From NCBI RefSeq assembly GCF_003334335.1, contig NZ_QOWQ01000034.1: 50,400 bases of DNA; one strand, written 5' to 3'. Under the pieces are notes generated by a model. The model was not told where the DNA came from. It was given only the letters and a program-made list of their open reading frames with translations, and made no database searches. Origin of the DNA: Escherichia coli. Its GTDB lineage: Bacteria; Pseudomonadota; Gammaproteobacteria; Enterobacterales; Enterobacteriaceae. Below, piece by piece: positions 36,558 to 36,857 of the stretch (positions are counted from its first letter, which is position 1; the number at the start of each line of letters is the position of its first letter). The translations under genes and the position numbers were made by a program.

Positions 36558-36857
36558 TCACCTATGCTTCGGCGACAACTGCTTCACAATCATCGCCGCA
36601 ATCCCAATCCCGTGCTGCTGCGCCAGGGTGTTACACAACTCATCGTCATAAAATCCCTGCATCATGCGCACCGAATCGCTGTTAAATGGGTTATCTTTCG
36701 AATCAAACAACTCGTTGGTTTTACGCATCTCTTTCAGCATGTTGCGTAAAAAAATCGCCTCAAACTGTTCGGCGGCCTGCCTGATATCATTGGCCTGAAC
36801 CTTCGGCCCCATTAACGCATCGCTGCCGTCAATCCCGCCGCTGCCGTTAACTTTCAT
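36558..36857 (-). CDS. lfgJ: FlgJ-like rod assembly protein, rod-binding domain only (no muramidase domain)
   Basis: 99-aa ORF; too short to include a glucosaminidase domain; ATGA overlap with lfgI stop. Confidence 0.8.
   Translation of the reverse strand: MKVNGSGGIDGSDALMGPKVQANDIRQAAEQFEAIFLRNMLKEMRKTNELFDSKDNPFNSDSVRMMQGFYDDELCNTLAQQHGIGIAAMIVKQLSPKHR

Follow-up and report, generated by a model that had tools for sequence, protein, structure and literature searches.

The Flag-2 locus was reportedly described by Ren et al. in 2005, and FlgJ proteins that consist of a single domain are said to have formed an accepted class by 2006 at the latest. FlgJ of the primary (Flag-1) flagella of Salmonella and E. 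coli, which is represented by the model TIGR02541, combines a Rod-binding domain with a C-terminal glucosaminidase domain (PF01832). In the Fla1 system of Rhodobacter sphaeroides, a FlgJ that has only the Rod-binding domain and no muramidase domain works together with the lytic transglycosylase SltF (PMC7277832). Other single-domain systems employ a specific lytic transglycosylase that is either needed or an interaction partner of FlgJ, namely SltF (PMC7277832) and BB0259 (PMC8517470). The lateral flgJ2 of Vibrio alginolyticus codes for 182 aa versus 307 aa for the polar flgJ1, and the two can be aligned over 95 residues only (PMC10956519). Enterobacterial Flag-2 loci have been compared in a dedicated study, in which lfgJ is not discussed (De Maayer et al. 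2020, PMC6993521).

The gene under study, lfgJ, is located at 36558..36857 on the minus strand of a 50.4-kb window, i.e. the whole stretch of E. coli DNA that was analysed. When the segment 36200–37000 was compared with complete E. coli genomes by megablast, it proved to be 100% identical to E. coli FORC_081, and at least 80% of the piece was present in 1204 of 5426 genomes. The surrounding locus begins with lafU, motA, the gene for a FliA-type sigma factor, fliL, fliK, a hypothetical gene, fliS, fliD, and lafA. These are followed by a regulator, a hypothetical gene, flgL, flgK, the 'rod-binding protein' gene, flgI, flgH, and flgG and, further on, by flgA/M/N; the modification genes, fliJ/I/H/G/F/E, a sigma-54 activator, fliM/N/P/Q/R, and flhB/A complete the order. 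The cluster is inserted between dinB and rayT/yafL, a site at which K-12 retains lfhA and lafU pseudogene remnants. LafA matches the NCBIfam model NF033376 ('lateral flagellin LafA') with 667 bits versus a cut-off of 440, and the gene order is syntenic with the lateral clusters of Plesiomonas and Photobacterium. Judged by its gene set and order, its own sigma factor, MotA, LafU, and the chromosomal site, the locus is Flag-2, a secondary flagellar cluster of the lateral type. The remainder of the window is core genome (ecpB-E, ykgJ, yagU, paoABCD, tRNA-Thr, proAB, phoE, crl, frsA, gpt, pepD, and yafNOP). An earlier note on this DNA had correctly recognised a single-domain FlgJ but had missed that it is the Flag-2 (lateral-type) paralogue; the primary flgJ, which encodes a dual-domain protein of 313 aa as seen in K-12, lies outside the window, elsewhere on the chromosome.

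It is important to note that the locus is damaged in this strain. In comparison with an intact allele, lfiI, the gene for the Flag-2 export ATPase (window positions 49522–50400), has a 2-bp deletion near 49873, which shifts the reading frame from about codon 326 onwards. In addition, from about 50327 up to the last position of the window the sequence belongs to one end of an element inserted in lfiI; this element occurs in multiple copies and is annotated as IS421 (IS4-like) in a strain that carries the identical insertion. Since lfiI is disrupted twice, Flag-2 is probably non-functional in this strain, and lfgJ, although itself intact, may be idle at present. Any function of Flag-2 in E. coli itself is putative.

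According to the ORF list and the RefSeq annotation, lfgJ is embedded in the basal-body operon between paralogues of flgI and flgK, all of which are encoded on the minus strand. Upstream of it are lfgI (P-ring protein paralogue, 371 aa, 36857..37972), lfgH (L-ring protein paralogue, 37972..38637), and lfgG (distal rod protein paralogue, 38841..39626). Downstream, the next gene is lfgK (hook-associated protein 1 paralogue, 458 aa, 34878..36254), which is followed by lfgL (hook-associated protein 3 paralogue, 33934..34887) and lafW (32940..33917), the gene for a 325-aa Flag-2 protein. The stop codon of lfgI and the start codon of lfgJ overlap by one base (TGATG), an arrangement that is also found for flgI and flgJ in K-12 and that suggests translational coupling. 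By analogy, LfgJ would be expected to cap the LfgG rod.

Between lfgJ and lfgK there is a spacer of 303 bp (36255..36557). It consists of two tandem REP/BIME-type units, i.e. a 92-nt repeat, the units of which are 90% identical and spaced by 118 nt. In many E. coli strains the spacer is about 118 bp longer, which corresponds to one extra unit. [quoted passage not shown] A scan of the spacer revealed neither a sigma-70 promoter nor a terminator. By eye, a weak sigma-28-like match (TAAG-N15-GCCGCTTT, minus strand, approximately 36281–36307) was spotted directly upstream of lfgK.

The lfgJ ORF is complete, with an ATG start and a TGA stop codon, and its product of 99 aa is named 'rod-binding protein' in RefSeq (WP_000867284.1). 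A Pfam search yielded a single domain, Rod-binding (PF10135), at residues 42–93 (36579..36734, minus strand), with an E value of 5.9e-14 and coverage of the full model (positions 1–51). A wider conserved core, comprising residues ~22–97, aligns with residues 30–102 of K-12 FlgJ. Over this stretch alone of the 313-aa protein the two sequences are 35% identical (BLASTP, E 2e-14; tblastn, E 1e-10). The TIGR02541 model for FlgJ is matched in positions 21–91 of 294 with 67.8 bits, far from the curated cut-off of 193 bits. As measured by this model, LfgJ is not a dual-domain FlgJ: it scores below the cut-off and has no C-terminal PF01832 glucosaminidase domain.

An AlphaFold2 (AF2) model of LfgJ, which has moderate confidence (mean pLDDT 67), comprises helices at residues 22–51, 61–82, and 86–94. 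The N-terminal ~20 residues (36798..36857, minus strand) are predicted to be disordered and are poorly conserved; residues 1–16 have pLDDT values below 50, and the N-terminus is variable in the alignment of homologues. By analogy with Salmonella FlgJ, this segment might represent the signal for flagellar type III export. No solved structure related to the rod-binding domain was found in the PDB.

In order to look for remnants of a hydrolase domain, we built a profile HMM from 160 glucosaminidase domains of FlgJ proteins and searched all stop-to-stop fragments of at least 30 aa in the six frames of the window and of 83 comparison loci. In the window no frame gave a match at E ≤ 10. As a control, across the window and the 83 loci the profile matched only six true dual-domain FlgJs, with E values from 1e-48 to 1e-67. 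The C-terminal half of K-12 FlgJ likewise had only chance-level matches in the window by tblastn. The pairwise dN/dS values of lfgJ versus its orthologues from Escherichia, Pseudocitrobacter, and Citrobacter amount to 0.04–0.07, which indicates that the short gene is under strong purifying selection. Thus, the description given in the earlier note, a 99-aa single-domain FlgJ lacking the peptidoglycan hydrolase domain, holds: the domain search returned Rod-binding only, and an adjacent-frame glucosaminidase domain, the possible sign of a frameshifted flgJ, is absent from all six frames.

The short form is by no means peculiar to this strain. In a collection of 5.8 billion proteins we found 104 close homologues, nearly all of which, partial sequences aside, are ~88–134 aa in length. 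A scan of one genome per species with an alignment of 10 sequences, and an inspection of the loci, revealed about 60 loci of the Flag-2 type in about 25 enterobacterial genera, and the FlgJ ORF comprises 97–142 aa in every one of them. Among these genera are Escherichia, Pseudocitrobacter, Citrobacter, Phytobacter, Leminorella, Enterobacter, Pseudescherichia, Cedecea, and Buttiauxella, as well as Pluralibacter, Yersinia, Lelliottia, Rahnella, Budvicia, Pragia, Pantoea, Fukatsuia, and others. Two length classes can be discerned. FlgJ has 97–108 aa in Escherichia, Citrobacter, and Yersinia and 129–142 aa, with a C-terminal tail of 25–35 aa, in a second set of loci (L034–L057; Buttiauxella, Cedecea, Lelliottia, and some Enterobacter and Citrobacter); species of either class occur in some genera, e.g. 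Citrobacter, perhaps because Flag-2 comprises separate sublineages. We have very little doubt that lfgJ is the intact, conserved, and natively single-domain flgJ paralogue of E. coli Flag-2.

A wider search retrieved 1427 FlgJ relatives among 1.84 billion cluster representatives. The best 138 relatives outside the near-identical set fall into proteins of up to 140 aa (38), of 141–259 aa (42), and of at least 260 aa (58), and the glucosaminidase domain is present in 48 of those 58 longest ones. When 30 mid-length or unusual relatives were analysed with Pfam, the Rod-binding domain was detected in each of them, and in five an SLT transglycosylase domain replaces the glucosaminidase. These five proteins (P0168, P0180, P0192, P0222, and P0234; 338–409 aa; e.g. 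from Cellvibrio sp.), in which Rod-binding is fused to SLT, constitute a third FlgJ architecture. In loci of sphingomonads and related bacteria (L071, L073, L074, L076, L077, L081–L083, and L088), FlgJ has about 104 aa (up to ~160) and lacks a glucosaminidase domain. The same loci contain, in a consistent position ~9–10 kb upstream of flgJ, an ORF of about 280 aa with weak similarity to MltC (E 0.007–0.09), which may code for a lytic transglycosylase of the SltF/PleA type that is linked to the cluster.

The only dual-domain case among the lateral-type and Flag-2 loci examined is the lateral FlgJ of Plesiomonas shigelloides (L008, 10001–10987; cf. PMC4481668), which has 328 aa and carries both PF10135 and PF01832. 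Its N-domain is nearest to the short lateral forms. The C-domain is nearest to those of other gamma-proteobacterial FlgJs, and not clearly to that of its own polar paralogue. From these sequence affinities, either retention or re-acquisition of the hydrolase domain may account for the Plesiomonas protein. In any case, Plesiomonas demonstrates that a hydrolase domain is compatible with lateral systems.

In RefSeq, for which the whole locus was inspected together with its flanking regions, no peptidoglycan hydrolase is annotated inside Flag-2. The genes yafL (NlpC/P60) and dpaA lie just outside the cluster and belong to the core genome, being present also in K-12, which lacks Flag-2. We used Slt70, EmtA, MltC, MltD, YafL, and DpaA as phmmer queries for lytic enzymes, together with a regular expression for the motif of family-1 lytic transglycosylases. 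Neither gave a match, be it in the six frames of the window or in the 10 kb on either side of flgJ in the ~60 Flag-2 loci. Weakly MltC-like ORFs were confined to sphingomonad loci. The searches covered E. coli family-1 lytic transglycosylases, the glucosaminidase profile, Pfam, and NCBIfam, and a small ORF with a truly new kind of lytic fold would escape them. In line with the earlier note, which had recognised no hydrolase in the window, the lytic transglycosylase that was then sought in the rest of the locus was not found. Hence, lfgJ is not accompanied by a recognisable gene for a dedicated, cluster-encoded lytic transglycosylase of the SltF, PleA, or BB0259 type.

Ten Flag-2 ORFs were also run against NCBIfam. 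Three of the products are encoded in the variable block between lfgN and lfiJ (44978–49220): a 322-aa protein resembling FliB (flagellin lysine-N-methylase; 43 bits, below the cut-off of 85 bits), an 838-aa glycosyltransferase, and a 177-aa protein similar to glycerol-3-phosphate cytidylyltransferase. The genes of this block presumably serve flagellin modification. LafD (103 aa) and LafW (325 aa) belong to no Pfam or NCBIfam family. The gene for LafW directly follows flgL in all ~60 Flag-2 loci, and its product is named 'hook-associated protein' in the databases. The AF2 model of LafW has a mean pLDDT of 72; its first 50 residues are disordered, the helices at the N- and C-termini are long, and a small alpha/beta domain lies in the centre. 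Foldseek matched it to flagellins and FlgL with E values between 2.5e-7 and 1e-3. Going by this model, LafW is a flagellin/HAP3-like axial protein rather than an enzyme, and it could be a third junction protein or a minor filament component specific to Flag-2.

When all observations are taken together, the best explanation as a whole is that lfgJ is the native short rod-cap gene of Flag-2 and that the wall is opened from outside the locus, a reading to which we assign a probability of roughly 85%. If one assumed instead that the 99-aa ORF is a pseudogene, i.e. what is left of a dual-domain flgJ after its 3′ half was lost by frameshift or deletion in this strain, one could point to the REP-filled 303-bp spacer in the place of the C-terminal domain, to the decay of the locus at lfiI, and to the 328-aa dual-domain protein in the lateral cluster of Plesiomonas. 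However, a spacer of this size could not accommodate the ~150-aa domain, no frame shows any similarity to glucosaminidase (HMM at E ≤ 10; tblastn), the short architecture recurs in about 60 loci from about 25 genera, and a dN/dS of 0.04–0.07 is at odds with decay. For recent events, a frameshifted or truncated flgJ is effectively refuted by tblastn, the glucosaminidase HMM, conservation, and dN/dS, and a pseudogene is extremely improbable in our opinion; an ancient loss of the C-terminal part in the Flag-2 ancestor is possible. It is likewise extremely improbable that a cryptic peptidoglycan-lytic enzyme among the Flag-2 proteins (LafW, LafD, or another one) replaces the missing domain. Such a role might be sought in LafW and LafD, as they have no Pfam or NCBIfam family and as the position of LafW after flgL is conserved in all Flag-2 loci. 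Yet the similarity of the LafW model to flagellins and FlgL points to an axial rather than an enzyme fold, LafD is small and in the position of FliT, and in Plesiomonas a weak LafW homologue occurs alongside a dual-domain FlgJ. LafW as a hidden hydrolase was rejected on the basis of the AF2 model and the fold search of the PDB, which indicated a flagellin/HAP3-like fold.

In our preferred reading, LfgJ would serve as a rod cap without a catalytic domain. Because LfgJ has no such domain and the locus encodes no peptidoglycan-lytic enzyme, the sacculus would either be opened from outside the locus or would not need to be opened. The likeliest source would be Sec-exported housekeeping lytic enzymes (Slt70, Mlt family), which could be recruited by LfgJ or could act in the course of normal wall turnover. 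Given the identity and native architecture of LfgJ, we regard reliance on such unlinked enzymes as the leading candidate and incline slightly towards it; a source of wall opening other than those considered here is very improbable. The earlier note had stated that the rod must use a hydrolase encoded elsewhere. We can add that none is encoded nearby; the word 'must' was a deduction, to which the lack of any dedicated enzyme is the alternative. Indeed, the rod might pass through pre-existing or turnover-related gaps in the sacculus, with LfgJ being purely a rod cap. This idea would accord with the lack of a lytic gene within 10 kb on either side of flgJ in ~60 Flag-2 loci and in the complete E. 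coli locus. It would also fit the observation, reportedly made by Hirano et al. in 2001, that Salmonella FlgJ without its C-terminal domain still permits slow and weak flagellation. On the other hand, SltF (PMC7277832) and BB0259 (PMC8517470) are needed by, or interact in, other single-domain systems, and the width of the rod exceeds the mesh size given for peptidoglycan (PMC8517470); we consider passage without a dedicated hydrolase doubtful, albeit plausible. As the primary FlgJ of K-12 (313 aa) is dual-domain and the N-domains are related (35% identity), the Flag-1 protein could also be imagined to lend its glucosaminidase to Flag-2 rods, either by cross-export or in trans. But Budvicia, Pragia, and Tatumella are reported to be motile although flag-1 is absent and only flag-2 is retained (PMC6993521), and their FlgJ proteins have 106, 103, and 124 aa, respectively. 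Because these reportedly motile Flag-2-only genera carry the short form, borrowing from the primary FlgJ is unlikely. [quoted passage not shown] A route not yet described, in which the helical core of LfgJ recruits a specific housekeeping enzyme or in which no dedicated cleavage takes place, has to be kept in mind for gamma-proteobacterial lateral flagella because no lytic gene is linked to the ~60 loci and the motile Flag-2-only genera have a short FlgJ; we rate this scenario as rather unlikely.

The gene itself is of little importance, and our survey adds modest context on the plasticity of FlgJ, which is already known. All enterobacterial Flag-2 loci sampled have the single-domain form, which they share with the lateral systems of Vibrionaceae; the lateral FlgJ of Plesiomonas is dual-domain, and in other relatives Rod-binding is fused to an SLT transglycosylase.

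In comparison with the described systems, LfgJ shares with the Flag-1 FlgJ of Salmonella and E. coli (TIGR02541; Rod-binding plus PF01832) the homologous N-terminal core, the gene position between flgI and flgK, and the one-base overlap of flgI and flgJ, but it is devoid of the linker and of the entire glucosaminidase domain. The FlgJ of R. sphaeroides Fla1 resembles LfgJ in its Rod-binding-only form and in its expected role as a scaffold (PMC7277832). Whereas sltF resides in the flgG operon of R. sphaeroides, the Flag-2 locus of E. coli and the 10 kb on either side of flgJ in the ~60 related loci contain no gene for a lytic transglycosylase. As in LfgJ, Rod-binding is the sole domain of the lateral FlgJs of Vibrionaceae (V. 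alginolyticus, Photobacterium), which belong to lateral clusters with the same synteny; an example is the 173-aa Rod-binding-only protein from the Flag-2-syntenic cluster of Photobacterium aphoticum. However, these proteins have a C-terminal tail of 70–80 aa without a recognised domain, whereas LfgJ ends right after the conserved core. The lateral cluster of Plesiomonas is syntenic with Flag-2 as well, and its FlgG, FlgH, and FlgI are 58–63% identical to the E. coli Flag-2 proteins, yet the N-domain of its FlgJ shares only 38% identity with LfgJ. The closest match is the enterobacterial Flag-2 LfgJ itself (De Maayer et al. 2020, PMC6993521): it is the same gene, with 100% DNA identity, the same neighbours, and the same site. 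In comparison with annotated Flag-2 loci, what sets this strain apart is the broken lfiI and not lfgJ, the short form of which is already known as an ordinary, annotated, and conserved part of a described locus.
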